Shown: positions 6,053 to 46,375, counted from the first letter of the stretch. The stretch: DNA of 64,000 bases from an uncultured archaeon (GCA_964407715.1 CAYOWP010000001.1:1-64000); one strand, 5' to 3'. Translations and numbers: made by a program. Notes: generated by a model not told the origin, from the sequence alone.

Positions 6053-6107
6053 AAATATTTTTAGTGATAGAGAATTATATATATGTTAAGGGGTCAAGCA
6101 AAGGATA

Positions 6108-6223
6108 GGCATTGTCCAATAATCCCTTATTAATAGAATTTTGTTAAGCGGAAAAGTAACCTCTTAAAGAAGCACATCAGAGCAGCAAATCCTGTAGAGC
6201 TAATGCAATTATTGGCCAATGCC
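6108..6223. mobile_element. MITE-like element, copy 1
   Basis: TIRs GGCATTGTCCAATAAT / ATTATTGGCCAATGCC; perfect 9-bp direct flank CAAAGGATA at 6099-6107 and 6224-6232. Confidence 0.85.
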
Positions 6224-6234
6224 CAAAGGATAGT

Positions 6235-6672
6235 TATAGGGTTTAGCCTCTTCATCAGGCATCTCACAGCATTCCACTTTAAAGGCCACCATGCTGCACT
6301 ATGCTAAGAAACAAGATATTTTCCCGTTAACCAATTATTTTAAAATAATGGTTAACGGAAGGAAATTCATTTCACACAGCATATTGCGACATGGTGGCCT
6401 TTTTTGAAGGTTAGCTGCTGTCCAACGGGTTTTTATATGTTACCATACTTCAAGACCTTTCGTAATAAGGATTTCTTCCTGTTAACCATATTTTATTTTT
6501 AAGATAACATGGTTAACGGGAGGAAATCGCTATCATAAGCGCATTGCAGCATGCTAACCTCTCCAAAAGGTTAGCTGCTTCTTAACCGCTTTAGAAAGGT
6601 TAGCTGCTTCGATATGCTGAATAATGAGGTTATGTTTTCCGTTAACCATTTACAAAAAACATTAGGGCAGCT
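6235..6672. repeat. Palindromic-unit array (about 3 units)
   Basis: One degenerate unit ending at 6333, then units 6349-6488 and 6510-6648 bounded by TGGTTAAC/GTTAACCA with inner TAACC-N9/10-GGTTAG. Confidence 0.88.
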
Positions 6673-6736
6673 AATATCATTACAGAGCTTTGTAAGATTG
6701 AAATTTTTTAAATTTTTATAGTGGAAGCATTTTTAT

Positions 6737-7606
6737 ATGAAATCAAGAGGTTTAGAGCTGTATATAAAGGATTATGCGAATCTTCTTAGAAAGATATCAA
6801 AATTTGCGAAGCATCCTGAGAAACTATACATAATTACAGATTTTGATAGAACACTAACGTATACTTGCATAAATAACAAAAAGATACCTTCTTTGATATC
6901 TGTTCTTAGAGATCCAAAATTTGGAATACTTGGTGAAGATTATATTAGAAGAGCACATGAGTTATTCAATAAATATCATCCATACGAGCATGATCCTTCA
7001 TTGAATATTGAAGAGAAAAATAGTTTGATGCAAAGATGGTGGAGGGAGCATTACTCTTTACTCATAGAGAAAGGATTAAGAAGACAAGATATTGATAAGG
7101 CAGTATCGTATTTTAAAGGTAAATTGCGTGAATATGTTAAGGAATTTTTTAGAGTTGCACATGAATATAAAGTTCCTATTATTATAATTTCATCTTGTGG
7201 TCTTGGAAGCTATGCTGTACATAAATACTTAGATGTGCATGGAATCAATTATGATAATGTGTATGTTATAAGCAATGAATTGGAATGGGATTCCAATGGA
7301 AAGATGGTTGGATGGAAAGAACCATTAATAACAGGCTTTTCAAAATATCTTATCAACCTTAAAGAATTTCGCGATATTTATGAAGTAATAAAGGATAAAG
7401 ATTACGGGTTAGTTTTTGGTGATAATGAGGATGATTATATTGTTGGAAAGAACAATTCACGTGATATGATAGCAATAGGATTTGTAATGAGAGATGTTCA
7501 GAATTTTGATATATTAGCTGAGGAATATAATGCCTTAATCACGAATGATGGAGATTTCAGTTTTGCATTTGATGTATTTAAAAGGATAATAAAGCAACCT
7601 TTTTAA
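6737..7606 (+). CDS. HAD-superfamily pyrimidine 5'-nucleotidase (cN-III/UMPH-1-like)
   Basis: Motif I DFDRTLT, MQRWW segment, VISNELEWD and motif IV GDNEDD, as in NT5C3-type enzymes. Confidence 0.8.
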   Translation: MKSRGLELYIKDYANLLRKISKFAKHPEKLYIITDFDRTLTYTCINNKKIPSLISVLRDPKFGILGEDYIRRAHELFNKYHPYEHDPSLNIEEKNSLMQRWWREHYSLLIEKGLRRQDIDKAVSYFKGKLREYVKEFFRVAHEYKVPIIIISSCGLGSYAVHKYLDVHGINYDNVYVISNELEWDSNGKMVGWKEPLITGFSKYLINLKEFRDIYEVIKDKDYGLVFGDNEDDYIVGKNNSRDMIAIGFVMRDVQNFDILAEEYNALITNDGDFSFAFDVFKRIIKQPF

Positions 7607-7640
7607 ATTAATACACGCCTTTAACACATATGGTGGTACA

Positions 7641-8219
7641 ATGAACACATTTGAAAAAATCAAGGAGTTAAAAGTGAAAGATGTGATGGATGAGAAATTT
7701 GTGATTAATGGAGTTAAGGATACAATAATAGATGTCTCAAGAGACATAACCAACTTAGGTGCATCAGAATCAATAATTGTTGAAGGAGAAGGAAATGTAA
7801 AGGGCATTGTTACTTTGAGAGATATTGTTTCTGCAATAGGAAAGGGCATATCTCCAAAAGAGCATATTGAGATAATTATGACTAAAAATGTTATTGTGGC
7901 CTATGAGGATGATCCTTTAGAGGATGCACTACTAAAAATGGCGAAATATAACATCTCCAGACTTCCTGTTTTAAATAATAAAAAAGAGGTTATTGGGGTG
8001 CTTGGCGAAAAGAAATTATTGAAAGTAATTCCAGCTTTATATGAATTGCTACAAGAAAACTTGATGGAAGAAAGACAAGACATAAGCTCACAGCCATCTA
8101 ATGAAGAGTCCATTACAAGGGAAGGAATATGTGAGAACTGTGAGCAGTATTCTGAGGAATTAATAAATGTTGATGGCAAATGGCTATGTAAAGAATGTTA
8201 TAAAGAAATCTATGGTTAG
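7641..8219 (+). CDS. CBS-domain protein with C-terminal zinc ribbon
   Basis: Tandem CBS motifs (GIVTLRDI, ISRLPV) and C-terminal CENC...LCKEC. Confidence 0.88.
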   Translation: MNTFEKIKELKVKDVMDEKFVINGVKDTIIDVSRDITNLGASESIIVEGEGNVKGIVTLRDIVSAIGKGISPKEHIEIIMTKNVIVAYEDDPLEDALLKMAKYNISRLPVLNNKKEVIGVLGEKKLLKVIPALYELLQENLMEERQDISSQPSNEESITREGICENCEQYSEELINVDGKWLCKECYKEIYG

Positions 8220-9223
8220 CTTTTATTTCTATAGGATTTTAGATGAGAAGACAAATATTGGAGAGAAAGTTTATCCAATTCTCTTTCCAATTCTGGCAAT
8301 CCTTCTCCTGTTATAGAAGATACAAAAAAGACATTTCTACGGCTTTTATCTTTTTTTAATGCTTTGATATCTTCATCACTTAGAAGATCAATCTTTGTAT
8401 AGACAATCAAGATGTTTTGTGGTTTAAAATGCCTTTTTATATTATTAAGAAGTTCCATTTGATCCTCTAACATATATCCTGATGTCATGGTAGAGTCTAT
8501 CACAAATATGATATTCTTGGAGAGATATTTTAATGCCAAATATCCTTTTTGTTCTATATCACTTAGCTTCTCAAAGTTTTTCTCCAATAGACCAGGCGTA
8601 TCTATGAGCATATAATGCTCCTTATTGCCTATTAAGATATCTTTTGTTGTAAATGGATATGGTTCTATCTTTATGTCTGCACGTGTTATTGCCTTTATTA
8701 ATGAGGATTTTCCTACATTTGGATATCCTGCCACAACAAAAGCCACTTTTGACTCATCTATCTCAGGAAATTTTCTAAGTATCTTAATTACATATATAAG
8801 ATAATCTAAGCATTCCTCTAAATCCTCTATTAAAGAGGAAACTCTCCCATAAAAACTTCTCATTTCCTTTTTTATTTCCTCCACTTTTCTATAAGTTTTT
8901 ATTTTTTTACGGGTTTTATTAGATAGCTGTCTTATCTTTCGATTTGTCCAGGAGATATGATAGAGACATTTTTTGTATGTGCTCATGCAAGCGTATGATT
9001 TAAAAAGTTCTTTATAGAAATCAGAAAAAGAATCTATCTTTGGAAGAGATTTTACTATCTTTGATAGCTCATTGTTTATAACATTTTCTACCGTTGAAAC
9101 TTTATTTAATGCTTTCTCTTTTTTATCTTCTATTCTCTTACCATGCGCTTTAATCTCTCTTGCTCTTCTAAAAGCCTTATCAAGAATCTCCTTTGGTTTT
9201 TTTATTGTAAAAGATATCTTCAT
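8216..9223 (-). CDS. NOG1-family GTPase
   Basis: GYPNVGKSS, YPFTT, DTPGLL and TKID motifs after a helical N-domain. Confidence 0.9.
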   Translation of the reverse strand: MKISFTIKKPKEILDKAFRRAREIKAHGKRIEDKKEKALNKVSTVENVINNELSKIVKSLPKIDSFSDFYKELFKSYACMSTYKKCLYHISWTNRKIRQLSNKTRKKIKTYRKVEEIKKEMRSFYGRVSSLIEDLEECLDYLIYVIKILRKFPEIDESKVAFVVAGYPNVGKSSLIKAITRADIKIEPYPFTTKDILIGNKEHYMLIDTPGLLEKNFEKLSDIEQKGYLALKYLSKNIIFVIDSTMTSGYMLEDQMELLNNIKRHFKPQNILIVYTKIDLLSDEDIKALKKDKSRRNVFFVSSITGEGLPELERELDKLSLQYLSSHLKSYRNKS

Positions 9224-9280
9224 AATATCTCCATATTGAAGGCTATTTAAAAAGAAATTAAATTTAAGAAATCTTTTCTT

Positions 9281-10165
9281 TTATTTTCTTTTTCTTCCTA
9301 TTAATATGTCCTTATAGATATGAGGTATTTCTTCCTCTTCTTCAATCATTTTTAACTCCTCAAAATACTTATTCTTTTCCTCTTTTATGATATCAATGTT
9401 AACTTTCATTAGGGTCTCCTTTAGCATTTTTGATGAAATTCCAAGAGGTATTGATACAGAACCTTCCTTTATAACCACATATTTTTCAATTTTTTTGATG
9501 TGATATTTTTCATTTTCACATTCTATACTTATTGCTGTAATAACTTCCTTTTTATTTAGCTCTTCTTTGTTTGATATATTGAGATCTTCAACCTTTTTTG
9601 CTACGGAGGTTTTCTTTTCAACAAACTGAGGAATACATGCAGCAAATATCATTCCGTTTTCTTTTAAAATTTCTGGGAGTAATTTCTCTATTCCCCCAAG
9701 GAAATATCTTCCAGTTTCATAATAATCTTTGACACCTCTAACATATTTATATTTCTCTTCCATATGTGGATTCATTCCTGGAGCAAAAAAGGTAATCAAA
9801 TCATATTTCTCTATCTTTGAAAATTTTATGAGATCTTTATAATTACATTCGCTTACACTCATAGGAATTATTGTAATCTCTATTCTAGGATGTGCGTTTC
9901 TTAGATAATCCTTAGATAATTTTTCTTTTAAATAAAAGAGATATGGAACATAGGGCTCTACACCCACGATATTAACCTTTTTAACTTTTTCTATCTGAGA
10001 GAAATATGAGATAAAGGCATCTAAGTATGGCATATATCCACATCCAAAGTCTAAGACATTTATTTCTTTTCTTTCTCCACCAAACACATCTTGTGGATTT
10101 CCTAAATAATTGATCAGCATTTTATATATAACTTCATTTAATCTTTTTTTATCTTCCCATATCAT
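9281..10165 (-). CDS. Putative class I SAM-dependent methyltransferase
   Basis: VLDFGCG motif I, GVEP and YDLIT. Confidence 0.6.
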   Translation of the reverse strand: MIWEDKKRLNEVIYKMLINYLGNPQDVFGGERKEINVLDFGCGYMPYLDAFISYFSQIEKVKKVNIVGVEPYVPYLFYLKEKLSKDYLRNAHPRIEITIIPMSVSECNYKDLIKFSKIEKYDLITFFAPGMNPHMEEKYKYVRGVKDYYETGRYFLGGIEKLLPEILKENGMIFAACIPQFVEKKTSVAKKVEDLNISNKEELNKKEVITAISIECENEKYHIKKIEKYVVIKEGSVSIPLGISSKMLKETLMKVNIDIIKEEKNKYFEELKMIEEEEEIPHIYKDILIGRKRK

Positions 10166-10226
10166 AAAATTAAGATATCATTATTTTAGTTAGATTTTTA
10201 AATATTTGCATATAGAAAACAAAACT

Positions 10227-10383
10227 GGCATTGTCCAATAATTCTTTATTGTTAAGCGGAAATTTAACGCGCAAATAGCACTTATAGCGGTAATTGCATT
10301 AGCTCTATAAGGTTTGCTACTTTAATGCGCTTCTTTAAGAGCTATTTTTCCGCTTAACAAATAGAAAATTATTGGACAATGCC
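10227..10383. mobile_element. MITE-like element, copy 2 (perfect TIRs, no visible TSD)
   Basis: GGCATTGTCCAATAATT...AATTATTGGACAATGCC with subterminal TTGTTAAGCGGAAA/TTTCCGCTTAACAA. Confidence 0.85.
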
Positions 10384-10494
10384 TAATGGTAGAGATTAAC
10401 AAAAATTTTTTAAATATATTGTGTGAAGATAGATAGTTTAATAGGGATAAATTTAAAAAATTATCTTCAATTATTCTCGCCATGAGGTGGTAAT

Positions 10495-11559
10495 GTGGAA
10501 AAAAAAGAAAAGGTTAAATGTCCTGAATGTGGGGGCACAGACTTTTTTAAGGATGAAACTACAGGGGAGATAATTTGTAAGAAATGCGGTACCATAGTAA
10601 AGGAGGAGAAAATAGTTACATCCCCAGAATGGAGGGCATTTGATGCAACACAACAAGAGAAGAAATCAAGAACAGGATCTCCTATCTCTTTAACAAAGCA
10701 TGATAGAGGTCTAGCAACTGAAATGGGAAAGGGAATAACGGATCTCTTTAAAGTACCTGCTAAAAAGAGAGCCCAGTATTATAGATTGAGAAGATGGAAC
10801 AAGAGATTAACAAAATCAAAGGAAAGGAATCTTTCATACTCCTTATCTGAGTTAGCAAGACAGGTAAGTTATTTAGGTTTACCTAAATCAGTATATGAGA
10901 AGGTTACGAGATTATATGAGAAGGCAGTTGAAATGGGATTGGTTAGAGGAAGATCCATGGAGACAATAATCACAGCATTGATTTATGCAGTGGCAAGAGA
11001 GGAAGGTACTCCTCGTACGCTTAATGAGATGAGCGCGGCTTCTGGAATAGAGAAAAGAGAGATAGGCAGAGCTTATAGATATATAGCAAGAGCTTTGGGT
11101 ATTAGAATATTACCAGCAAAGGCAGAAGATTACATTCCAAGATTTGCATCTCTTTTAGGTTTATCAGGAAGAGTACAGGCAAGGGCAAGGGAAATATTAA
11201 GAAAGACACAAGATGAAGACCTTACATCAGGTAAGGGGCCAACAGGTATTGCATCTGCTGCACTTTATATTGCTGCAGTATTAGAGGGAGAGAGAAGAAC
11301 ACAGCGAGATATTGCGGATGTTGTGGGGGTTACAGAGGTAACCATAAGAAATAGATATAAGGATTTAATAGAAAAATTGGGAATAGAGGAAGAGATTGAG
11401 AAGATAATAGAGGCTGATGAAGAATTAAAAGAAATAAGCAAGAAAGGCAGAAAGAAAAAAAGAAATGATCTCGAGAAAAGAATACTATCTGATGAGATAT
11501 CAGATGAGGAGTTAGAGGAATTGGAAAAGAGATTTAAGGAGTTGGAGGAGAAGGCGTGA
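10495..11559 (+). CDS. tfb: Transcription initiation factor IIB
   Basis: Zn ribbon CPECG...CKKCG, PEWRAF, cyclin repeats with GRS and GKGP, VTIRNRYK. Confidence 0.97.
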   Translation: MEKKEKVKCPECGGTDFFKDETTGEIICKKCGTIVKEEKIVTSPEWRAFDATQQEKKSRTGSPISLTKHDRGLATEMGKGITDLFKVPAKKRAQYYRLRRWNKRLTKSKERNLSYSLSELARQVSYLGLPKSVYEKVTRLYEKAVEMGLVRGRSMETIITALIYAVAREEGTPRTLNEMSAASGIEKREIGRAYRYIARALGIRILPAKAEDYIPRFASLLGLSGRVQARAREILRKTQDEDLTSGKGPTGIASAALYIAAVLEGERRTQRDIADVVGVTEVTIRNRYKDLIEKLGIEEEIEKIIEADEELKEISKKGRKKKRNDLEKRILSDEISDEELEELEKRFKELEEKA

Positions 11560-11598
11560 GAATAACAAATAAATATTCTACCCATCCAAATATATTTT

Positions 11599-15991: not shown

Positions 15992-16032
15992 AGAGTAAGT
16001 AGAAAAAATAAAGAATGCTTCAAAAAAGAATT

Positions 16033-17009
16033 TGGTTAACGGGAAGCATAGCCTTTTCATTTTGCGTATGGAAGCAGATAACCCTTAAAAAAGGTTAGAA
16101 TGCTATAATATGCTTGTGATAGGATATCCCTCCCGTTAACCATGTTTTATTTTAAAATAAAACATGGTTAACGGGAAGCATGGCCATTATCTCCACCATC
16201 TTGGAGCAGGTAACCCTTAAAAAAGGTTAGCATGCTGTGATGTGCTTTGGGAAAAGGAATTTCTCGCGTTAACCAAATTAAGAATGGTTAAGGGGAAGCA
16301 TAGCCATATCCAGAGCATATCAGAGCAGCTAACCATTGATAGAGGTTAGCATGCTGTAATATGATTGTGAGAGGGATTTCCTCCCGTTAACCATTTTTTA
16401 AAATAACTGGTTAAGTGGAAGCATAACCATTCATTTTGCGTATCACAGCATCTAACCTCTTCAAGAGGTTAGAGAGTACCTAACCTTTTGTAAAGGGTTA
16501 GCATGCTGCAATGTGGTTTGATAAGGGATTTCTTCCCGTTAACCATTTCATTTGATAAATAAAAATTGGTTAACTGGAAGCATACTTTCTTAAGAAAGCA
16601 CATTGGAGCAGCTAACCTTTTCAAGAGGTTACCATGCTGCAATGTGGTTGTGAAAGGAATTTCCTCCCGTTAACCATATTTTATCTTAAAATAACTGGTT
16701 AAGGGGAAGCATAGCCATTCATTCGGCGTATCACAGCATCTAACCTTTTCAAGAGGTTAGAGAGCATCTAACCTTTTAAAATGGTTACCATGCTGCAATG
16801 TGGTTTGATAAGAGTTTTCCCCTTAACCAGTTATTTTAAAAAATGGTTAACGGGAAGCGTAGCCTCTCAAGAGAGCATATCAAAGCAGCTAACTTTTCTA
16901 AGCGGTTGAGAAGCACCTATCCTTTTGAAGTGGTTACAATGCTGTGAGGTGGTTTGAAAAAGCATTTTTCCGTTAACCAAATTTTCAAAATACATTATTG
17001 GGCAAAATC
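16033..17009. repeat. Palindromic-unit array (7 tandem units) ending in a degenerate MITE terminus
   Basis: Units 16033-16142, 16165-16275, 16285-16393, 16408-16545, 16567-16676, 16696-16829 and 16844-16979; ATTATTGGGCAAAATC at 16994-17009. Confidence 0.95.
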
Positions 17010-23752: not shown

Positions 23753-24367
23753 TCTTGATAAAGAGTTTGTTAACGCAATAAGAATTTCTCCACCTATCAA
23801 CCTCTTTATAATGTTACCATGCTACGATATGCTCTCTAGAGGAGGTATATTTTGCGTTAACTAAATTTTTATTTAAAAAATCTGGTTAACGCAAGAAATC
23901 GCTTTCCAATGCACATAGCAGCATGCTAACCGCTTTCAATGGTTAGCTGCTTCAATATGTTTTCTTGATGATATGCAGTTCTCCTTAACCAAATTTTCAA
24001 AAATAAAAAATGGTTAACGGGAAGCATAACCATCACTAAAAGGTTTGCAGCATTCTAACCTCTATCAATGGTTAGCTGCTGTGATGTGCTGAATGAATAG
24101 GTTATGCTTCCCCTTAACCATTTTAAAAAATAATAAGATATGGTTAACGCGAGGAAATCCCTCTCATAAAAGGTTTGCAGCATGCTAACCTCTTGAAAAG
24201 GTTAGCTGCTTCCATACGCAAAATGAAAAGGTTATTTTTCCCCTTAACCATTTTATTTTATTTAAAAAATCTGGTTAACGCGAGGAAATCGCTTTTACAA
24301 CCATATTGCTTTAAAATGGGTTAGCATGCTCCAAGGTGCTTGTGGAAGCGATTTTCTTCCGTAACCA
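23742..24367. repeat. Palindromic-unit array (5 units, mostly reverse orientation)
   Basis: Degenerate terminus TGTGCCAATAAT, then units starting near 23768, 23883, 24011, 24141 and 24272. Confidence 0.93.
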
Positions 24368-24380: not shown

Positions 24381-24469
24381 GGCATTGTCCAATAATTCTT
24401 TATTGTTAAGCGGAAATTTAACGCGCAAATAGCACTTTTTTTGTTAATAGAGAATTATCGGACAATGCC
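24381..24469. mobile_element. MITE-like element, copy 3 (internally deleted, 89 bp)
   Basis: TIRs GGCATTGTCCAATAAT / ATTATCGGACAATGCC; flanks ACAAATTCA and ACCAATTCA (8/9 match). Confidence 0.85.
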
Positions 24470-24516
24470 ACCAATTCAGTTAATTAAAATGTATTTTTAA
24501 ATTTTACTTTTTTATA

Positions 24517-25362
24517 ATGGTATTAATTATGGAAGAAAAACCTCCTATTGAGTATGAGAGGATTTTGAATTCTTTTTTGGAGTTGTATGAGGATAAAAGA
24601 GGAGGAAAAATTGTACGTAAGGTATGTGATAAAGCATATGATTTCATGCTTAAAATTTATGGTATGGGAGCAGCACCAGGATTGTTCTTAAATTATAAGC
24701 AAATAGATGGAATAATGAACAAGGCTGAGGCATTTGTAAAAAGCAATCTCTATTTTTGGCAAGAAACTTTCAAGTTTGTTACTGATCCTCAAACATATAA
24801 AATGGCTAGTCATTTCTTATACAATCTTTATCATAATAAACATTTCACAATGTTCGATGTTTTGCCATATCAAGCTCAAATAGAAAAGATAGGAAAGGTG
24901 TTCTATCATATTGATAAGGGATGGAAGAACATAATATATAACTTTCCGATATATATGGGCTTAGGATTATTAGTGATAGGTTTTGCATTGATTACTACAG
25001 AGACATTGAATGGCATAGTAAGAGGTTTCATCTCCAAGAAAGAGATACATATAGAAGATTTAAAAGAAAGGGAAAAAGAGATTATTATAGGACATATTCT
25101 TTTAGGATACGAGAGATGGGCAAGCTATGAGGAAGGAGAATGGAAAAAGCTTAAAGAAGAATATGATGAAATCATTAACAGATTGGGAGAACTTATTTTT
25201 AAAAGAGAGAATTGGAAAGAAGAAGGAGAACTTTTGAGGTTTTTATATATAAGAGAAACAATTAAAAAGGAGAGAAAAGTGAGAAAGGCTGATAAGTTCT
25301 TTATGAATGTTTATAGAGAGATAAAAGATGAGATAATAACTCAACCAAAAATCTCATCTTAA
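24517..25362 (+). CDS. Hypothetical protein with one TM segment
   Basis: 281-aa ORF; alternative start ATG at 24529. Confidence 0.7.
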   Translation: MVLIMEEKPPIEYERILNSFLELYEDKRGGKIVRKVCDKAYDFMLKIYGMGAAPGLFLNYKQIDGIMNKAEAFVKSNLYFWQETFKFVTDPQTYKMASHFLYNLYHNKHFTMFDVLPYQAQIEKIGKVFYHIDKGWKNIIYNFPIYMGLGLLVIGFALITTETLNGIVRGFISKKEIHIEDLKEREKEIIIGHILLGYERWASYEEGEWKKLKEEYDEIINRLGELIFKRENWKEEGELLRFLYIRETIKKERKVRKADKFFMNVYREIKDEIITQPKISS

Positions 25363-28671: not shown

Positions 28672-28832
28672 AGTATGCTCAATAATTCTTTATGGTTAAG
28701 CGGAAAGTATACCTTATCAATAGCACATCAAAGCAGCCAACACTCTTGAAAAAGGTTAGCATACTGCAAAACTTTAGGTAAAGATATGATTTCTGTTAAC
28801 CAAATTTTTAAAATACGTTATTGGACAAAACT
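28672..28832. repeat. Single palindromic unit with degenerate MITE termini
   Basis: AGTATGCTCAATAATTCTTTATGGTTAAGCGG...GGTTAGCATACTG...GTTAACCA...TTATTGGACAAAACT. Confidence 0.8.
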
Positions 28833-28991
28833 GGAATTGTCAAAAAATTTTTGATGAAGGTCTGTTAACAAGAAAACTTATTCTTGCAATCGCATTAGCT
28901 CTCTAAGGTTTGCTTTCTCTAATACGCTTCTTTAAAAGGTTACTTTTCCGCTTAACAAAATTTTGTTAATAGAGAATTATTGGACAATGCC
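28833..28991. mobile_element. MITE-like element, copy 4
   Basis: GGAATTGTC...ATTATTGGACAATGCC; perfect 9-bp flank GACAAAACT at 28824-28832 and 28992-29000. Confidence 0.87.
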
Positions 28992-29046
28992 GACAAAACT
29001 GGCTTTTCATAAAAATATATAACTATGTGTGAAATAAATTATTAAT

Positions 29047-29586
29047 ATGGGTAAATTTGAAATTATAGAACATCTTTATCCTGAGAGAAGATGGATATCC
29101 TTCACAATTAAAGGGCATAACCCTTGGGCTTGGGTTTTTAAAAAATATGTTAAATTAGTTGCCCATATTTTTGAGATTTCAAGTTCAAAGATATATTTGC
29201 GTTTTTTGATGGTTGATGATTTTGAGACATATAAAGGAGGAAGCACTATATATTATAGATATCATGTTGATTTCGTTAAGCCTTGGGATAATTTCACAAA
29301 GTTTTGGGTAGAGACACGTCTTAGTGGTTCACAGGATATAAAGACAAAAGAAGGGGTTGTGGAATTTAAATTTCATCCATATCTAAGAACTAAATTTGAG
29401 TATGTAAATCAAATTCAAAAGAGTTTGATAGATTTATATTGGCTTGGCTATTACCAGAAAAGAGTTAATACATTAAAAGAACAAAATAAGGCATTATTTG
29501 AAAAAACCATGTTGGAGATCAAATCTGCATTGGGTGTGAAGTTAGTAGAGGAAAAAGTAGAAGAGGGATGGAAGGAAGGTTTCTAA
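29047..29586 (+). CDS. Hypothetical protein
   Basis: 179-aa ORF with a TATA-like box about 30 bp upstream. Confidence 0.75.
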   Translation: MGKFEIIEHLYPERRWISFTIKGHNPWAWVFKKYVKLVAHIFEISSSKIYLRFLMVDDFETYKGGSTIYYRYHVDFVKPWDNFTKFWVETRLSGSQDIKTKEGVVEFKFHPYLRTKFEYVNQIQKSLIDLYWLGYYQKRVNTLKEQNKALFEKTMLEIKSALGVKLVEEKVEEGWKEGF

Positions 29587-32487: not shown

Positions 32488-32532
32488 AAAAGTAAATTTT
32501 ATATTGAATTAATTTTTTAAAAAGACACAAAA

Positions 32533-32814
32533 TGGATAGGTTATGTTTTCCGTTAACCATTTTTAAAATAATTGGTTAACGGGAAGCATAACCTATCCAA
32601 AGCATATTGCAGCAAGGTATCCTTTCAAAAAGGTTAGCTGCTTCAGTCTGCTGGATAAAAGGGTTATGTTTTCCGTTAACCAAATTTTTATTTTAATGAA
32701 AAATGGTTAACGGGAGGAAATCGCTTTCTCAAGGCACATTAGAGCATGCTAACCCTCTACAAAAGGTTAGCTACTTCAATACGCCAAATGAAAGGGTTAT
32801 ACTTCCCGTTAACC
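32533..32814. repeat. Palindromic-unit array (2 units plus a partial)
   Basis: Units 32573-32682 and 32704-32814, with a partial arm upstream. Confidence 0.9.
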
Positions 32815-32875
32815 GATTATTTTGCATAAATAAAAAATAGAAAAATTTTTTAATTTATGTGAGAAAGGAAGATTT

Positions 32876-35329: not shown

Positions 35330-35373
35330 GACTTTATTTAACAAACTTAAGATTTTAAATATGTTGACCTTAT

Positions 35374-35495
35374 AGTATTGAGCAGCAAACTTTGTTAACG
35401 GGAAGCATAGCTTTATACAAAGGGTTAACTGCTCTCATACACTTCTTTGAGAGGTTATGTTTCCGCTTAACAATAAAGAATTATTGGACAATGCC
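35374..35495. mobile_element. MITE-like element, copy 5
   Basis: Perfect right TIR ATTATTGGACAATGCC and degenerate left end; direct flank TGACCTTAT at 35365-35373 and 35496-35504. Confidence 0.83.
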
Positions 35496-35549
35496 TGACC
35501 TTATATAACTGCAGAAACTTATTTAAATATGGTATATTTTATTCCTTAT

Positions 35550-36788
35550 ATGCATACAAAAACTAAGGAAGATCTAAAGGAAATTGATTTACCTGTGATG
35601 AATATAGGCATAGTAGGGCATGTGGATCATGGAAAAACAACTCTTACACAGATGCTTACAGGAAAGTTCACTGATGAACATAGCGAGGAGTTAAAGAGAG
35701 GGATATCAATAAGATTAGGATATGCTGATTTAAAAATAAAAAGATGTCCAAAATGCGGGACATATACTACATTGGATATATGCTTCAATGATAACACTCC
35801 AACACAACTATTGAGAACATATTCTATAATTGATGTACCTGGACACGAGACATTGATAGCTACAGTATTAACAGGAACAGCCCTGATAGATGCTGCTATC
35901 TTAGTAATAGCAGCAAATGAGCCATGTCCTCAACCACAAACAGAAGAGCATTTAACAGCATTAGAAATTGCTGGCATTGACAAAATAATCATTGTACAAA
36001 ATAAAATAGATTTAGTAACAAAGCAACAAGCAATTGAACATTACAAACAGATAAAGGAATTTATAAAAGGCACAATTGCAGAGAATGCTCCTATTATTCC
36101 TGTATCAGCTCATCACAATACCAACTTAGAAGTCCTTTTGGAGTACATTTATAATCTCTTTGTTCCTCCAAAGAGAGATGAAACCTTATCACCAATAATG
36201 TATGTTGCGAGGAGCTTTGATGTCAATAAACCCGGAACAAGAATAAAGGATTTGGTTGGAGGTGTATTAGGTGGTGCTATAAGGCAGGGAATATTTAAGA
36301 TTGGTGATGAAATAAAGATACTTCCCGGTATAAAGAAAGGAGAAAGGTTTATGCCTGTATATACAAAGATAGAGAATATGATGCAGTCTAATAGGAAAAT
36401 AAAAATAGCGAGACCAGGCGGCTTGATAGCTATTTCCACTCTTTTGGATCCTTATTTTACAAAGGGAGATAGTATGGTTGGAAATATAGTGGTCAAGAAA
36501 GATAATGAGGAAGTAGAGGTATATGAGGTGTTACGAGTTAAATATACTCTTATTGAAAGAATTATAGAAAATGAAAGAAAGAAAATTGTTGAGGATATCA
36601 ATGTAAATGATGTGATTTTAATAAACATAGGAACAGCAAGAACCATTGGGATATGCACAAAAAAAGAAAGGGACGTTATTGAATTAAAACTGAAATTGCC
36701 TATTGCAGCTTTTAAGGGAGATAGATGCGTATTATCAATGCAAGTAGATGGTAGGTGGAGATTAATAGGCTATGGAGAGGTGGTGTAG
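35550..36788 (+). CDS. eif2g: Translation initiation factor 2 gamma subunit
   Basis: GHVDHGKTT, RGISIRLGY, DVPGHE, PQPQT, NKID and RWRLIGYG. Confidence 0.97.
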   Translation: MHTKTKEDLKEIDLPVMNIGIVGHVDHGKTTLTQMLTGKFTDEHSEELKRGISIRLGYADLKIKRCPKCGTYTTLDICFNDNTPTQLLRTYSIIDVPGHETLIATVLTGTALIDAAILVIAANEPCPQPQTEEHLTALEIAGIDKIIIVQNKIDLVTKQQAIEHYKQIKEFIKGTIAENAPIIPVSAHHNTNLEVLLEYIYNLFVPPKRDETLSPIMYVARSFDVNKPGTRIKDLVGGVLGGAIRQGIFKIGDEIKILPGIKKGERFMPVYTKIENMMQSNRKIKIARPGGLIAISTLLDPYFTKGDSMVGNIVVKKDNEEVEVYEVLRVKYTLIERIIENERKKIVEDINVNDVILINIGTARTIGICTKKERDVIELKLKLPIAAFKGDRCVLSMQVDGRWRLIGYGEVV

Positions 36789-36789
36789 A

Positions 36790-37134: not shown

Positions 37135-37165
37135 AATATTAGAAGTGTTTTCTTGGTGTTAGGCT

Positions 37166-37702: not shown

Positions 37703-38243
37703 TTGGCTTAACATGTCTTAATGTAGTGATATACCATATCATTATTACTATGAAGGAATTAAGAATTGCTAAAAGGATGTGGTCGTATATTCTATAAAAT
37801 TGTGCATTTGTCATCATTACCAATATTAAAGCAAGAGAAATTCTGCAGATGTTTATGAATAAAGCAAGAAAGGGAGAGATAGCAAGCAAGACAATTTTTC
37901 TTTTGATGGAGACATTTGGAGTGGCTAATATTAAAGCAAAGAGAAATGCAAATGTTTTGAAACCTATGCATTCCTTTGTAATTGAGATGTATAACCCTTG
38001 GTCGTGCATTTGTAATGTGTTACCTAATCTTTCCAAATTGAATATATACGATAGTATAAGAGCTTCATATATCTGGAAATTATAAAAGTCATGCTTATAA
38101 TAAATCCAAAACATAAAAGAAAGCGAAGAAAACAGGATTATTGAGAATTTAAATAATGCAAGTAGCTTTTTATTTCTTATGTTGTTAACCTGCAATCCCC
38201 TCTTCGCTTTTCTTTTCATCTTTAACTCCTTCTTGCGTTTCAT
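37692..38243 (-). CDS. Archaeosortase/exosortase-family protein
   Basis: Membrane protein with ECIG (catalytic Cys), NICRI (Arg) and a downstream His. Confidence 0.75.
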   Translation of the reverse strand: MKRKKELKMKRKAKRGLQVNNIRNKKLLALFKFSIILFSSLSFMFWIYYKHDFYNFQIYEALILSYIFNLERLGNTLQMHDQGLYISITKECIGFKTFAFLFALILATPNVSIKRKIVLLAISPFLALFINICRISLALILVMMTNAQFYRIYDHILLAILNSFIVIMIWYITTLRHVKPIKD

Positions 38244-38362
38244 TTACTAAAGACTCTATATCAAGTTTCTCTTCTTTTTTGCTTTTTTTCTTTACTATCA
38301 CCATAAAATCCCCTATTATCTTATATGTTTGTGGTTATATATATAATTTAAAGTAAAAATTT

Positions 38363-38862
38363 TGGTTAACAGGAAAAATCCATTTTACAACCACATTGCA
38401 GCGTGATAACCTTTTTATTTTTGGTTATCTGCTTTGCAATGAGCTTTTTAGCAGATCCTGTTTCCTGTTAACCATTTTTGTTTTGGTTAACGGGAAACAT
38501 ACCTTATCGAGAAACCACATTACAGCATCTAACCATTCTAAAGAGGTTAGCATGCTGTAATTTGGCTTTGAAAAGCGATCTCTTCCCGTTAACCATTTTT
38601 GTTTTGGTTAACAGGAAACATACCTTATCGAGAAACCACATTACAGCAGCTAACCCTTTAAAGCGGTTAGCATGCTGTAATGTGCCTCGGAAAAGTGATT
38701 CTCTCCCGTTAACCAATTTTTATTATTTTTTAAATTGGTTAACTGGAAACATACCTTTTTCATTTGAGGTATTAGAGCAGCTAACCTTTCACTTGGGTTA
38801 GCATGCCGCAAGAGCTTTATGATAGCGATTTCTTCCCGTTAACCATTTATCTGCGTTAACCA
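38363..38862. repeat. Palindromic-unit array (4 units)
   Basis: Units start near 38363, 38484, 38605 and 38736; the second and third share a near-identical left half. Confidence 0.93.
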
Positions 38863-38946
38863 TTATCTTTAAAATAAATCAAGAGATTGTTTCAGAGAAG
38901 CAGAGATATTGTGGTATCAAAGAAATTTGTGTAAATATGAAGAGAA

Positions 38947-39891: not shown

Positions 39892-39960
39892 AAAAATAAT
39901 AAATAGGAAAAAATTTAAAATAGTTGATATAAGTATAATTTAATTTAAAAGGTGCTTAAA

Positions 39961-42089: not shown

Positions 42090-42178
42090 TTTTATACCTC
42101 TTCAACTCTTATTCTTTAGGGTGACATTAACATCCCTACCCCATTAAGCCACCTCATGCGTAGGCTCAGTGACTATCG

Positions 42179-43507: not shown

Positions 43508-43560
43508 TTTAAAAAGTTTCTTGAGGAAACTATTTTCATAAATTTTAGTTCCCTAAGGGG

Positions 43561-44499
43561 TCAAAAATTTTTACTTTTATGTAATTCAGAAATTTTTTGC
43601 AAATATTTCTTTATCTCTCTTTTATCTTCATAAAATGTAATAGCAAAATATTTATTATCATCCTTTTTTCTAATATAAAATTCTTCATGCTCTTTCTGGA
43701 GGAGAAGAGGAGCATTATATCCTAAGAATAGACTATCCACTAACCAGTTATCAGTTGCTTCATTAGGTTGTGGAGAAAGTTTAATATAAATCTTTGAAAG
43801 ATTTTCAGCTATGTTTTTTACTCCTACAGATTGAACAAATCTCTTTGCAGTACAATAAGCCTTTTCTAATTCTTTTTTATTTTCATGAAGCTTGTAAAAA
43901 TGATATCTAAGCAATTCTAAATGTTCTGGAAACTTTTCTGGTTCAGCACGACAAAGTCCAAGGAAAGCCAATGGTGCAAGAGAAAACTCGAATTTTGAGC
44001 TATTAACAAGATCTCGAAGATAATCTGCTACTCTATACCCCGAAGACATTTCCGATATAATATATAATCCAATAGGGAACAATTCTTTATCTTTTTCTTC
44101 TTTAATAGTATCACAAGTGATACTTTCAACTATAGCGGGAATAGTTTCAACAGCTTTGACTTCAAGAACTAAAAATAACAGGTACTTTAAAATTTTCTTG
44201 GAAAATTTTTCTTCTGGAATGTTGAGAATAGCAATTTTCAGTCCTTCTCTGAATTTTTTCTTTCCTCTATATGACAGCGATTCATAAATACTCTTTAAAA
44301 TTTCTATCATATCTTCATATTTCTGACTTAAGATATATCTTTGTTGAGATGTTCTTAATTCTGTTACCAGCCATTTACTAATTTCTTTGCTATTCATATT
44401 TTCTATCTTCTTTTTTTCTTCTTTAATGATAATATAATCATATATATCCTTAAGCATGCTATTTTGTTTTTTACCTTCAATTTTTTCTTTAAATTCCAT
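43561..44499 (-). CDS. Hypothetical helical protein
   Basis: 312-aa ORF with SD-like GGAGGGAG upstream. Confidence 0.7.
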   Translation of the reverse strand: MEFKEKIEGKKQNSMLKDIYDYIIIKEEKKKIENMNSKEISKWLVTELRTSQQRYILSQKYEDMIEILKSIYESLSYRGKKKFREGLKIAILNIPEEKFSKKILKYLLFLVLEVKAVETIPAIVESITCDTIKEEKDKELFPIGLYIISEMSSGYRVADYLRDLVNSSKFEFSLAPLAFLGLCRAEPEKFPEHLELLRYHFYKLHENKKELEKAYCTAKRFVQSVGVKNIAENLSKIYIKLSPQPNEATDNWLVDSLFLGYNAPLLLQKEHEEFYIRKKDDNKYFAITFYEDKREIKKYLQKISELHKSKNF

Positions 44500-44591
44500 T
44501 TTGTTCTCCCTCCTATCTTCATATTAACAAGTTTTTGATATACTGGAAAACCGTTAAATATATATATAAGTTTGAACTATAATATATTTTA

Positions 44592-44651
44592 CTCTTGGTT
44601 CATTTAGAACCAAGAGGGTTCCCCTAGGAAGGTCCTTTATAGGACCTTCCT
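44592..44651. other. Twin perfect hairpins in a divergent intergenic region
   Basis: CTCTTGGTTC-attta-GAACCAAGAG (44592-44616) and AGGAAGGTCCT-ttat-AGGACCTTCCT (44626-44651). Confidence 0.8.
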
Positions 44652-44707
44652 TTATGCTCTTTCTATTATACAATAATTTTAAAATTTTTAGTCTTATATT
44701 TGACTAT

Positions 44708-45763
44708 ATGAAAAAATTTAAGAGATGTGTACTTTATGAGAAATTGGAAAATAAGAAAGTGAGATGTTTCGCATGTAGGCATAGATGTGTAATCAATGAG
44801 AATCACACAGGTATTTGTGGTGTAAGAGCGAATTTTTCTGGTGATCTCTATCTCATAGTGCATTCTAAACCTTCAGCATATCACATAGATCCCATAGAGA
44901 AAAAACCTTTCTATCACTTTCTACCATCAGAACAAGCATTATCCTTAGGTACAGTAGGATGTAATTTTAGATGTGCATGGTGTCAAAATCATGATTTGAG
45001 CCAAGGAATTAAGGAATACTCTATGTTTAATGCAGAAAAGGCAGTGAAATTTTTAGAGCACAATTCATTTGAAGGTTTAGAACCAGAGAGGATTGTTGAA
45101 GATGCTATTAATTTTGGAGTGAAAATAATAGCATATACATATAATGAGCCTACGATATGGATGGAGTATGCGATAGATATTGCGAAACTTGCGAAAAAGG
45201 AAGGTATAAAAAATGTATTTGTTTCATCAGGATATGAGAGCGAGGAAGGATTAAAGTTTATCTCGCGCTACATAGATGCCTTTAACATTGATCTCAAGGC
45301 ATTTAGAGATGAAACCTACAGGAAATACATAGGAGCAACATTAGATGGTGTGTTAAAAACCATAAAGGAGATAAAGAAAAAAGGAAAATGGTTGGAGATA
45401 ACAACACTTTTGATACCTGATATAAATGATAGCATTGAGGAAATAGAGGAGATAGCAGATTTTATATGTTCAATAGATAAAGATATTCCTTGGCATATAT
45501 CAAGATTTTTTCCACATTATAAGATAACAAACAAACCTCCAACACCAATATCTAAATTAGTAAAAGCAAGAGAAATAGGAATAGAACATGGTTTAAGACA
45601 TGTGTATTTGGGCAATATTATCGATAAAAAATATGAGAGCACATACTGCCCAGAATGCAAGAATATAGTAATAGAGAGAGAGGGATATTTTGTAAAGAAC
45701 TACCTTGATGAAAACGGAAAATGCCCTTATTGTGGTTATAAAATAAAAGGAGTTTGGAAATAA
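44708..45763 (+). CDS. AmmeMemoRadiSam-type radical SAM enzyme
   Basis: N-terminal CFACRHRC...GICGVR, DPIEKKP, CNFRCAWCQN, YTYNEP and C-terminal CxxC pairs. Confidence 0.92.
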   Translation: MKKFKRCVLYEKLENKKVRCFACRHRCVINENHTGICGVRANFSGDLYLIVHSKPSAYHIDPIEKKPFYHFLPSEQALSLGTVGCNFRCAWCQNHDLSQGIKEYSMFNAEKAVKFLEHNSFEGLEPERIVEDAINFGVKIIAYTYNEPTIWMEYAIDIAKLAKKEGIKNVFVSSGYESEEGLKFISRYIDAFNIDLKAFRDETYRKYIGATLDGVLKTIKEIKKKGKWLEITTLLIPDINDSIEEIEEIADFICSIDKDIPWHISRFFPHYKITNKPPTPISKLVKAREIGIEHGLRHVYLGNIIDKKYESTYCPECKNIVIEREGYFVKNYLDENGKCPYCGYKIKGVWK

Positions 45764-45770
45764 AAATCTC

Positions 45771-46172
45771 CTATCTTTTTACTTCCTTTACCACATATAT
45801 ATCTCCTTTTTCATCTCTAGCACCAACTCCAATCGTATCAAGACCGTCTATCACTGGAATATCTTGAAATACCTTTCTAAGAGAAAAGCTACCTGCTGCA
45901 CATCCAAGAGAGACAATAGCATCAATATCTCCTTCTAAGTTTATTTGCTTTTTTATCATATCTATATCGCACATTATTGGAATAACATTTTTGTATGCTA
46001 TATTAAAACCCTCTTTCTTTAAAGCCTCACTAACCTCTTCTAATCCTTTATCTCCACCAGTACCACATATCCTTGCACAAGCGTTACATGCGATTACAGC
46101 AATTCTTTTGGCATTTATTTCCTCTAATTGTGCCTTTATTACGCCGAGAGGTTTTCTGTCGGTTACTATCAT
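45771..46172 (-). CDS. Cys-rich MetV / MTHFR-C-terminal-like protein
   Basis: CNACARICGTGG, MC and GCAAG. Confidence 0.7.
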   Translation of the reverse strand: MIVTDRKPLGVIKAQLEEINAKRIAVIACNACARICGTGGDKGLEEVSEALKKEGFNIAYKNVIPIMCDIDMIKKQINLEGDIDAIVSLGCAAGSFSLRKVFQDIPVIDGLDTIGVGARDEKGDIYVVKEVKR

Positions 46173-46241
46173 AATCTCACCTCACATAATTATTATAAAA
46201 TCTTAAAATTATATATAATTTAATTTTGTTTTTATAGGGTG

Positions 46242-46375
46242 AGCATTGTCCAATAATGTGTTTTGAGAAATTTTGTTAACGGGAAACATAGCTATATTTA
46301 AAGGATTAAACTGCTATAAGTGTTATTTGCGCGTTAAGTTTCCACTTAACAAATGGAGGATTATTGGACAATGCC
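46242..46375. mobile_element. MITE-like element, copy 6
   Basis: AGCATTGTCCAATAAT...ATTATTGGACAATGCC; flanks TATAGGGTG and TATAAGGTG (8/9 match). Confidence 0.85.

Follow-up and report, generated by a model that had tools for sequence, protein, structure and literature searches.

MITEs in the tiny genome of an uncultured archaeon (0.9-Mb assembly G000, 92% complete) were found to lie mostly at a fixed distance upstream of archaeal promoters, with an element end 24 to 27 nt from the TATA box. Insertion at a fixed distance is strongly supported by the positions observed across the genome, as is the proposal of an earlier note on this DNA that the elements occupy a safe harbour upstream of the promoter, and we consider it highly probable that targeting is anchored to the promoter as such. 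These positions suggest that the element directs its own insertion to a site immediately upstream of promoters, where it does no harm. Such a promoter-docking habit is known in bacteria and yeast, and we found no report of it for archaea.

The elements and their IS5-family partner

The family comprises about 70 copies, and 48 paired, complete elements of 89 to 390 bp were identified genome-wide. The terminal repeat is GGCATTGTCCAATAAT, and the ends begin with GGCATTG. Matches to the repeat numbered 146 in G000 at up to three mismatches, with 91 matches to GGCATTGTCCAATAAT at no more than one, and the window, which is the whole stretch of 64,000 nucleotides analyzed, held 11 occurrences compared to 1.06 expected. 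The 9-bp flanks of an element agreed within two mismatches in 24 of the 48 pairs, compared to 1.2% of shuffled partners, and the duplications directly adjoined the GGCATTG ends in 24 pairs, or in 32 when an offset of 1 nt was allowed. The elements are thus short and multicopy, have terminal inverted repeats and flanking target duplications, contain no internal transposase gene (they are too short to encode one), and share their ends with an autonomous element. No transposase gene for them, including one of the type described below, was found in the 0.9-Mb, 92% complete G000 assembly.

A full 1,114-bp insertion sequence with the same ends as the MITEs was located on a metagenome contig (L098:905-2018), where it encodes P0001, a 316-amino-acid DDE transposase. 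The test for an IS5-family transposase was run on this partner and not on a G000 protein, and gave 199 bits against NCBIfam transpos_IS5_2 (cut-off, 140), with 85 bits for Pfam DDE_Tnp_1 and 42 bits for DDE_Tnp_1_5. Residues D130, D200, E277, and K284 were invariant among 52 homologous sequences. Alignments covering 88% of P0001 showed 28% identity with IS903B transposases (E value, 1e-17). The 25 plasmid records listed were spread over at least 5,000 that matched; most of those with a specific name were annotated as IS903B or IS903 family (27 to 28% identity), the top one was ISAav2, and the remainder were named simply as IS5 family. The IS903B terminal repeat taken from its record, GGCTTTGTTGAATAAATC, shared 14 of 18 positions with the MITE repeat, GGCATTGTCCAATAATTC. 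Members of the IS903 group, as defined in ISfinder, have a 9-bp target duplication, ends starting with GGC, and a length of approximately 1 to 1.1 kb. Here the duplications were 9 bp, the ends began with GGCATTG, and the full copy was 1,114 bp, compared to 1,057 bp in the IS903B record; as in IS903 and IS903B, there was a single DDE transposase of about 310 amino acids with DDE_Tnp_1_5 and DDE_Tnp_1 domains. The elements are MITEs, nonautonomous derivatives of an IS5-family, IS903-like insertion sequence.

Promoter boxes in the window and across the genome

In the window, all six elements with canonical repeats had a TATA-like box 24 to 27 nt from an end. The 116-bp MITE at 6108..6223 carries GGCATTGTCCAATAAT and, at its other end, a repeat with one mismatch, between copies of the duplication CAAAGGATA at 6099-6107 and 6224-6232. 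At 25 nt out from end 6108, TATATATAA begins; the first T of the TATA-like box TATATATA (6076..6083, minus strand; a weak matrix score of 3.6 bits) lies there, facing the minus-strand gene at 5447-6052, whose start codon at 6052 is 31 nt beyond. The 157-bp MITE at 10227..10383 has perfect terminal repeats and stands between two divergent genes, 9281-10165 on the minus strand and tfb, 10495-11559, on the plus strand. No matching target duplication was found at this element (8 of 9 flank positions differ), and a promoter box was present 25 nt from both of its ends. A distance of 25 nt separates end 10227 from the first T of the BRE/TATA match TTTAAAAA (10195..10202, minus strand; 8.1 bits), and the start codon at 10165 follows 37 nt downstream of that T; TTTTAAAT (10408..10415, plus strand; 10.8 bits), upstream of tfb, has its first T 25 nt from end 10383. 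In G001, a MITE-free genome of the same genus, a similar ATTAAC...TTTTTAAA stretch is found upstream of tfb.

The shortest element, 89 bp at 24381..24469, is flanked by ACAAATTCA and ACCAATTCA (one mismatch); TTTTAAAT at 24495..24502 (plus strand; 5.2 bits) has its first T 26 nt from end 24469, and an in-frame ATG at 24529 follows 34 nt downstream. The 159-bp MITE at 28833..28991 is a nested insertion: an older MITE-like copy lies at approximately 28676-28832, and the target duplication of the newer one, GACAAAACT, falls within the degenerate right terminal repeat of that copy. The first T of the BRE/TATA match TATATAAC (29016..29023, plus strand; 5.4 bits) is 25 nt from the newer end, 28991, and the ATG at 29047 follows 31 nt downstream of it, while the older end is 16 nt from the same box. 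The 122-bp MITE at 35374..35495 has a degenerate left end, a perfect right repeat, and the duplication TGACCTTAT at 35365-35373 and 35496-35504. Its box, TTTAAATA (35522..35529, plus strand; 5.6 bits), starts at a distance of 27 nt from end 35495 and precedes the eIF2-gamma gene, the probable start of which is the ATG at 35551, 29 nt downstream of the box. Lastly, the 134-bp MITE at 46242..46375, with target duplications TATAGGGTG and TATAAGGTG (one mismatch), has the palindromic TATA box TTATATATAA (46208..46218, minus strand) 24 to 27 nt from end 46242 (6.9 bits at 27). This box faces the minus-strand gene at 45771-46172, which has a short leader with a Shine-Dalgarno-like stretch, GGTGAGGTG; before the insertion, it lay 37 to 40 nt upstream of the ATG at 46392 of a PGI-like gene across the MITE.

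No such box was found at the other window ends, 6223, 24381, 28833, and 46375. All seven end-to-box distances quoted in the earlier note were recovered from the sequence, as was the gap of 15 to 17 nt between target duplication and box, the 9-bp duplications (for example, CAAAGGATA, GACAAAACT, and TGACCTTAT) directly flanking the repeats. Its statement that every element with terminal inverted repeats sits near a TATA-like box held for the canonical elements, but the window also contains arrays of hairpin modules and fragments related to the MITEs, which lack canonical terminal repeats and had been left uncounted.

Distances were then considered genome-wide, each measured from an element end to the first T of an outward-facing BRE/TATA box, using a promoter matrix learned solely from 277 upstream regions without a MITE. 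An outward-facing match at 24 to 27 nt was present at 47 of 122 ends (mode, 25), compared to 3.2% of random intergenic positions (p ~1e-37). Neither of two concerns raised in the earlier note, that its boxes had been picked by eye and that the genome is AT rich, explains the pattern: a matrix from MITE-free regions reproduced it, and the random positions came from the same genome. Once near-duplicate flanks had been removed, such a match scored at least 6 bits at 46 of 120 ends and at least 5 bits at 51 of 120. At least one end at this distance was found for 36 of the 48 complete elements, and the other 12 pairs had no box at 24 to 27 nt at the 5-bit threshold. The distance was 25 nt for 24 ends, 27 for 14, 26 for 8, and 24 for 6. 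When best matches were considered, 37 of 72 fell within the 4-nt interval from 24 to 27, compared to 13 in the twelve positions from 12 to 23 and 8 in the twelve from 28 to 39.

Information content was approximately zero at flank positions 1 to 16, covering the duplicated 9 bp and the spacer, and the only signal came from an A-run at 20 to 22 and TTTWWAAA at 25 to 32; the ends away from the promoter were flat. The center of the box was about 23 bp from the center of the duplicated 9 bp, on one side only. The end-to-TATA distance had a standard deviation of 1.06 nt, compared to 3.8 nt for the end-to-ATG distance, and in two nested cases (28833 in the window and C13:20753) the newer copy had inserted within the terminal repeat of the older one, 25 nt from the box. 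These results demonstrate that insertion position tracks the TATA box and not the start codon. A gene pointing outward was faced by 35 of 37 boxes, compared to 55 of 84 at other ends (Fisher p 5e-4), and an open ATG lay 24 to 42 nt downstream of 34 of 52 boxes, with a mode of 31 to 32 nt that equals the genome-wide peak for genes without a MITE. In this genome, an A-run, TTTWWAAA, and a T-run make up a nearly palindromic BRE/TATA motif, so that promoter direction is read from the arrangement of the genes, on which selection could also act.

A constant spacing alone would also be expected if the elements were wrongly delimited, with the true element reaching further and carrying the TATA-like box, or if the flanks were copies of one larger repeat. 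This explanation is hardly credible and was refuted by the duplications abutting the GGCATTG ends, by the uninformative flank positions 1 to 16, and by the 122 flanks falling into 120 distinct clusters; in addition, most elements have a box at only one end.

Selection as an improbable source of the spacing

Insertion might instead be random or AT biased, with only those copies surviving that lie in a narrow neutral strip upstream of promoters. The compactness of the genome is in keeping with such survivorship: about 87% is coding (crude gene caller), intergenic regions without a MITE have a median length of 92 nt, and a conservative model leaves no other neutral position for 12 of 46 elements. 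The counts nevertheless exceeded what survivorship predicts. When the elements were re-placed uniformly within their own intergenic regions, 4.9 of 46 were expected to have such an end, compared to 35 observed. Under the conservative selection-only model, which lets an insertion survive only if it is upstream of a promoter, 15.1 of 46 were expected; the maximum in 200,000 simulations was 23, and none reached 35. Space was also available elsewhere, since, of the 31 elements for which exactly one end is on the promoter side, 14 have 100 nt or more of free space beyond the other end. Selection sets only a lower bound on the distance and so cannot yield the sharp upper edge seen in the best matches (37 at 24 to 27 nt and 8 at 28 to 39 nt), and the 1.06-nt spread argues against it as well. 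These results demonstrate that chance or survivorship fails to explain the pattern. The short-gap caveat of the earlier note is thereby answered, and this already disfavored explanation is very improbable.

Selection could also act through a benefit gained after insertion, if the MITE end acted from upstream as a regulatory site, either operator or insulator, and copies were kept only at a working distance from the TATA box. The terminal repeats are indeed highly conserved, with no more than one mismatch in most copies, and would occupy a constant position, about -55, at many promoters. However, the same exact spacing would have to be selected independently at approximately 50 unrelated genes, and a high rate of insertion near promoters would still be required. 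Furthermore, there was no orientation bias, either end type being able to face the promoter (4 to 4 among the A/B elements), and the newer nested insertions were still at 25 nt. We therefore regard a regulatory benefit as an improbable source of the spacing.

The proposed promoter landmark and known systems

We propose that the transposase chooses its targets without regard to the sequence at the cut site and inserts upstream of an archaeal promoter at a constant spacing, the element end coming to lie 24 to 27 nt (mode, 25) from the first T of TATA. The duplicated 9 bp would thus be about 8 to 10 bp upstream of the BRE and roughly 46 to 54 nt upstream of the transcription start. Insertion would leave the BRE, the TATA box, and the gene intact and would therefore be tolerated, so that the family could reach about 70 copies in 0.9 Mb of approximately 87% coding DNA. 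In line with the positioning by TBP-TFB suggested in the earlier note, the landmark may be a promoter that TBP-TFB has bound and bent, and the transpososome would contact or sense it from upstream. The full account, in which IS5/IS903-like MITEs target a promoter distance and, as the step we infer, use the TBP-TFB complex as a host-factor landmark, is plausible and is put forward tentatively.

Alternatively, the transposase itself may read the DNA, without a host protein, by way of an AT-rich, TATA-like segment that bends easily and lies at a constant offset from the active site; one subunit or surface of the transpososome would recognize the segment, and in an archaeon such segments would happen to be promoters. 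Direct reading is a real but doubtful possibility. It fits the fixed-distance data equally well, and the sensitivity of IS903 and Tn10 to the deformability of target-flanking sequence counts in its favor. The closest P0001 homologue with a source name, 52% identical, is labeled as a bacterial MAG (Rhabdochlamydiaceae); to our knowledge bacteria lack TBP and TFB, and homologues of about 50% identity under a bacterial label therefore favor a property intrinsic to the transposase or the DNA. In a sister family on other metagenome contigs, including the only full-length copy found, the box starts 14 to 17 nt from the end, with one at 21 (7 of 8 elements). The duplicated 9 bp there abuts the BRE and leaves little room for TFB, which counts against the host-factor landmark and is easier to picture for direct reading than docking beside TFB.

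Other observations weigh against direct reading, and the first two also point, indirectly, to a host factor. The box is one-sided, with its center about 23 bp from that of the duplicated 9 bp, and Pfam domains fill residues 21 to 311 of the 316 of P0001, leaving no spare DNA-binding domain. The box sequences vary widely (for example, TTTAAAAA, TATATAAC, TTTCTAAA, and TCTAAAAT), and their common feature is promoter context, 35 of 37 facing a gene. By analogy, passages of PMC11335895 in which the targets of ISAba13, IS903, and IS5 are set by the DNA-bound host protein H-NS and not by sequence, together with the promoter offset of TnGBS, ISLre2, and ISKra4 in passages of PMC3942029, would also be indirectly consistent with a host-factor landmark.

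Unlike IS903, the present family has an archaeal host and is represented in this genome only by MITE derivatives. We know of no fixed-distance promoter targeting by IS903, which favors a symmetric pattern about its 9-bp duplication; here the duplicated sequence carries no information and the sole signal is one-sided, 15 to 17 nt away. Ty3, a eukaryotic LTR retrotransposon with the Pol III start site as its target, a safe harbor in a compact genome, has its integrase positioned in yeast by a promoter complex with TBP- and TFIIB-like (Brf1) components. This TFIIIB tether has been demonstrated for Ty3, whereas a tether is only inferred here. Hotspots of IS903 depend on H-NS-bound regions, and H-NS capture as portrayed in those passages of PMC11335895 is regional over AT-rich bound DNA, with neither a single-nucleotide ruler nor promoter specificity.

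At sigma-A promoters, TnGBS, ISLre2, and ISKra4 insert 15 to 17 bp upstream of the first promoter element, the -35 box, and such elements with symmetric terminal repeats do so in both orientations, according to passages of PMC3942029; similarly, the gap between the 9-bp duplication and the TATA box is 15 to 17 nt here, and there is no orientation bias. Their transposase is Mutator-like and their promoters are bacterial, compared to an IS5/DDE_Tnp_1 transposase and archaeal BRE/TATA promoters in the present case. Membership in ISLre2/TnGBS was rejected, the partner transposase being of the IS5 family and not Mutator-like (UPF0236 type); a PF06782 search gave no match in G000 but none in the control genomes either and so carries no weight by itself. 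The analogy to ISLre2/TnGBS drawn in the earlier note thus stands for the fixed promoter distance and fails for the Mutator-like family, and the likeness to TnGBS/ISLre2 and to Ty3 is one of behavior only. For the archaeal ISH6 family, a preference for an AT-rich motif has been suggested to favor promoter regions (passages of PMC3942029). Unlike the elements described here, ISH6 duplicates the AT-rich motif itself, AANATNTT being its target duplication, whereas the 9-bp duplication in G000 is sequence neutral and the TATA box stands undisturbed 15 to 17 nt away.

A family of short elements related to IS903

Copies of the terminal repeat GGCATTGTCCAATAAT with up to 3 mismatches numbered 11 in the window, the first 64 kb of contig C1 of the archaeal assembly G000, compared to 1.06 expected, and 146 in the whole genome (898,521 bp in 16 contigs, 32% G+C, estimated to be 92% complete). 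Inward-facing pairs of the repeat delimited 48 complete elements of 89 to 390 bp (median, 248), and there were 26 single ends. The 9-bp outer flanks differed at no more than 2 positions in 24 of the 48 pairs, or in 32 when an offset of 1 nt was allowed, while pairs with shuffled partners stayed within this limit in 1.2% of cases. Because the flank match was so far above the shuffled control, these elements are short non-autonomous elements (MITEs) with a 9-bp target duplication that directly abuts the terminal repeat. At no more than 1 mismatch, the repeat occurred 91 times in G000 and once each in 2 of 60 other genomes drawn from relatives and wider archaea, and the MITE family is essentially private to G000. 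Long stretches were duplicated between contigs of this assembly, with identical MITE flanks (C8 versus C9, and C7:54162-55078 versus C15:14144-15152); they are probably assembly redundancy or strain variants and were removed before element ends were counted.

The enzyme that mobilised the G000 copies is absent from the assembly: searches with PF01609 and PF13586, and tblastn with the transposase P0001 described below, gave no significant match. A search with PF06782 (ISLre2-type) likewise returned zero matches, but so did the control genomes. When public metagenome contigs were scanned with the 18-nt element end, 67 loci were recovered, a handful of them real elements and the majority single chance matches. 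One of these contigs, L098, carries at positions 905-2018 a 1114-bp element between the same repeats, with a single ORF encoding P0001 (316 aa). This protein scored 199 bits against the NCBIfam model transpos_IS5_2 (cut-off, 140), contains the Pfam domains DDE_Tnp_1_5 and DDE_Tnp_1, and has residues D130, D200, E277, and K284 that were invariant across 52 aligned homologues. Many of its matches in plasmid records were annotated as IS903B or IS903 family, and these were 27 to 28% identical over 88% of P0001; the MITE end GGCATTGTCCAATAATTC was identical at 14 of 18 positions to the IS903B terminal repeat GGCTTTGTTGAATAAATC taken from a plasmid record. On the strength of the transposase, the repeat, the 9-bp duplication, and the 1.1-kb size, the elements were placed in the IS5 family, probably close to its IS903 group, and this evidence excludes a Mutator-like ISLre2/TnGBS identity. 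Within the phylum, for which the collection searched held only 42 species genomes, P0001-like genes were present in 7 of the 42 at identities of 34% or lower, and one relative, at 31% identity, was found among the viral contigs scanned.

Several other candidates were set aside. A repeat pair 1.2 kb apart (L070) was rejected as an autonomous copy because its ORFs do not encode a transposase, and locus L036 was dropped as an independent locus because it is G000 C8:4276-4446. Thirty-two single matches to the 18-nt end in public genome contigs, mainly of high-GC bacteria, were taken as chance.

Distance from element end to TATA box

So that boxes would not be chosen by eye, a 16-nt promoter matrix was trained by EM on 277 upstream regions with no MITE within 500 bp; its consensus, AAA-WW-TTTWWAA-WTT, describes a TATA box preceded by a BRE-like A-run. 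We scored with this matrix the 80 nt beyond each of 122 non-redundant element ends, taking distance from the element end to the first T of an outward-facing TATA. The best match reached at least 6 bits at 72 of the 122 ends, and in 37 of the 72 the first T lay at 24 to 27 nt (3 at 24, 17 at 25, 7 at 26, and 10 at 27), compared to 13 best matches across the twelve positions 12-23 and 8 across the twelve positions 28-39. An earlier note had claimed, from seven ends in the window, that the elements end 24 to 27 bp from a TATA-like box. This genome-wide test bore the claim out, with a peak at 24-27 where any match of at least 6 bits was present at 47 of 122 ends, compared to 3.2% of random intergenic positions (binomial p ~1e-37; 20,000 positions within 353 MITE-free intergenic regions). 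All seven window distances were reproduced as well, six of them with boxes scoring at least 5 bits; the box of the seventh, TATATATAA beyond end 6108, scored 3.6 bits and lies 31 nt upstream of the start codon it faces. The enrichment was stable for thresholds from 4 to 8 bits and after near-duplicate flanks were clustered (46 of 120 ends). At least one end of a pair had a box at 24-27 in 36 of the 48 pairs with the threshold set to 5 bits (39 at 4 bits and 33 at 6 bits), both ends did so in 4 pairs, and 12 of the 26 single ends qualified.

The main caveat of the earlier note was survivorship, in that short intergenic gaps might leave only promoter-adjacent insertions to be seen. Uniform re-placement of the elements in their own reconstructed intergenic regions, using coordinates only, predicted 4.9 of 46 elements at this distance, with a maximum of 15 in 200,000 runs, compared to 35 observed. 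We also built a deliberately generous selection-only model, in which insertions were allowed solely upstream of the outermost promoter match and 12 elements with no room were scored as certain hits. It predicted 15.1 of 46, and its maximum in 200,000 runs was 23, so survivorship falls well short of the 35 observed. Among elements with exactly one promoter-side end, 14 of 31 had 100 nt or more of unoccupied DNA beyond the opposite end. The peak at 24-27 has a sharp upper edge and is therefore not the product of a lower bound set by selection. We infer that the position was very probably chosen by the transposase at the moment of insertion.

When 52 promoter-side flanks were aligned at the element end, information content was approximately zero over the 9-bp duplication and the 7 nt beyond it, and rose at an A-run at positions 20-22 and at TTTWWAAA at positions 25-32; the 70 other ends used for comparison were flat at every flank position. 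Since the signal was restricted to the A-run and TATA of the promoter-side flanks, the sole recognisable target feature is one-sided, and the box is centred ~23 bp from the midpoint of the 9-bp duplication. The standard deviation of the distance was 1.06 nt from element end to TATA, compared to 3.8 nt from element end to start codon, and the anchor is therefore the BRE/TATA rather than the gene start. These results demonstrate that IS903-like copies sit at a set distance upstream of BRE/TATA, whatever the sequence at the insertion point.

The boxes near MITE ends look like working promoters, judged from the genes around them. Boxes faced a gene pointing away from the element in 35 of 37 cases, compared to 55 of 84 among the remaining ends (Fisher p 5e-4), and an open ATG was present 24 to 42 nt past the box in 34 of 52 (mode, 31-32). 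Promoter direction was assigned here from gene arrangement, because the motif is nearly palindromic, and genes came from a simple longest-ORF caller, so that start codons are approximate. At MITE-free genes, the first T peaked 30 to 34 nt ahead of the start codon (58 of 277 regions fell within these 5 nt), a spacing which suggests that many G000 transcripts may be leaderless.

The promoter as a probable landmark

In two nested cases, window 28676-28991 (newer copy, 28833-28991) and G000 C13:20742-21069 (C13:20753), the newer copy ends 25 nt from a box and its duplication lies within a terminal repeat belonging to an older and degenerate copy, whose own end is 15 to 16 nt from the same box. This spacing fits a ruler, and the older copies hint at another docking register, nearer to the box by one helical turn. 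The sister family, made up of the L098 element plus seven 82-bp MITEs with the same ends as that element, all on other metagenome contigs, had a strong TATA-like box outward from one end in 7 of 8 elements, with the first T at 14, 15, 15, 16, 17, 17, and 21 nt, approximately one helical turn closer than in G000. This suggests that promoter-adjacent insertion may be a property of the clade, with a register that could vary by ~10 bp (n = 8 elements). Within G000, secondary registers at 14-17 and 33-36 nt were not significant alone; 5 of 69 non-peak ends fell at 14-17, compared to ~5% of control positions when a window of the same 4-nt width was measured at 24-27. Four elements have a box beyond each end, and a matching duplication was absent from three of them; recombination between two copies docked at divergent promoters would give such ends.

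What the transposase measures from could, with slightly less than even confidence on our part, be the promoter as bound and bent by TBP-TFB. That the transpososome reads TATA-like DNA directly is somewhat less likely. In favour of direct reading, P0001 homologues ~50% identical carry a bacterial label, and at the register of the sister family the 9-bp duplication and the BRE have no space between them. A host factor is favoured, in contrast, by the long one-sided offset between insertion and box, by the compactness of P0001, which has no spare domain, and by the IS5 family in bacteria, where a passage of PMC11335895 has H-NS, not sequence, setting target choice. With TBP-TFB as the landmark, we tentatively picture an IS5-family transposase that would dock on the upstream face of the promoter complex, mainly about two helical turns from TATA; the older nested copies at 15-16 nt and the sister family at 14-17 nt are the reason for adding a possible second register one turn closer. 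If the transcription start site lies ~30 nt past the first T, insertion would fall at about -46 to -54, and all that the promoter needs would be downstream. A safe harbour is the outcome under either landmark.

Fixed-distance promoter targeting by transposons is rare, and the targeting of Ty3 through TFIIIB is functionally similar. The G000 elements are closest in function to TnGBS, ISLre2, and ISKra4 and to Ty3/TFIIIB, but by family they are IS5/IS903. For prokaryotes, passages of PMC3942029 describe such targeting as unique and unusual and assign it to Mutator-like elements (TnGBS, ISLre2, and ISKra4), whose insertions lie 15-17 bp upstream of the -35 box. No bias in MITE orientation toward the promoter was seen (A/B elements split 4 to 4), which matches what Guerillot et al. 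state there for promoter-targeting elements with symmetric repeats (PMC3942029). Searches of the openly readable literature for archaeal or promoter-directed targeting turned up no fixed-distance promoter targeting in archaea or the IS5 family; the nearest statement found, also in PMC3942029, concerns ISH6, whose duplicated AT-rich motif might bring it to promoters. The words "promoter" and "TATA" are both absent from the text of a 2026 survey of archaeal insertion sequences.

Should docking on TBP-TFB prove true, archaea would have an equivalent of the eukaryotic Ty3-TFIIIB and bacterial TnGBS-sigma-A systems, and safe-harbour targeting through the basal transcription machinery would have arisen independently in all three domains, here in a third transposase superfamily. 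If real, the targeting would account for how a gene-dense 0.9-Mb genome bears ~70 copies of one mobile element, and would provide ~50 sequence-independent promoter markers for an uncultured lineage as well as a natural probe for the archaeal pre-initiation complex on its upstream face. It would also suggest a candidate tool for inserting DNA at defined, non-disruptive sites beside archaeal promoters.

Individual insertions, hairpin arrays, and genome context

The region upstream of tfb (window 10384-10500) contains two TATA-like boxes, at 10408 and ~10447-10460. The box at 10408 adjoins the MITE, 87 nt before the GTG start, which is preceded by the Shine-Dalgarno-like GAGGTGGT. A stretch resembling ATTAAC...TTTTTAAA, similar to this distal box, is also present upstream of tfb in the same-genus, MITE-free genome G001, which is in line with a working promoter. 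In the interval 46208-46392 of the window, the leftward gene 45771-46172 is served by a palindromic TATA box, TTATATATAA, and its short leader includes a Shine-Dalgarno-like stretch. Prior to the MITE insertion, this box also stood 37 to 40 nt upstream of the ATG (46392) of a PGI-like gene on the opposite side. The MITE may thus have separated the PGI-like gene from a bidirectional box that both genes shared, and now occupies the 5' region of the PGI-like gene, whose longest ORF begins within the element, at 46353. No pre-insertion site was definable in the orthologous upstream regions of G001 or the same-family genome G003, which are ~70-77% identical to G000 even in coding sequence, with broken synteny. 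Among the joints listed for DNA runs, no joint skipped just a MITE; stored contigs break at repeats.

Tandem arrays with a period of 121 to 149 bp are present at window positions 6313-6652, 16022-16992, 23799-24309, 32525-32838, and 38459-38852, and the same arrays are found on many other contigs and at several contig ends. Each unit contains a pair of palindromes able to form hairpins, CCCGTTAACC...GGTTAACGGG and GCAGCTAACC...GGTTAGC. Canonical terminal repeats are absent from the arrays, which have modules in common with MITE interiors and gave zero Rfam matches in the window. MITEs and hairpin arrays together make up ~60 kb, or ~7%, of G000.

The genes of G000 include those for an archaeal TFB, eIF2-gamma, A-type ATPase subunits, and two TBP paralogues. 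The paralogues, at C5:45365-45901 and C5:71394-71927, encode proteins of 179 and 201 aa that are 41% identical, and most genomes of the order likewise have two TBPs. Runs labelled as hydrothermal vent metagenomes contained 91% and 81% of the sampled words from a 10-kb stretch. The window opens with the 3' end of an archaeal 16S rRNA gene (1-190; Rfam RF01959, 182 bits), truncated by the contig start.
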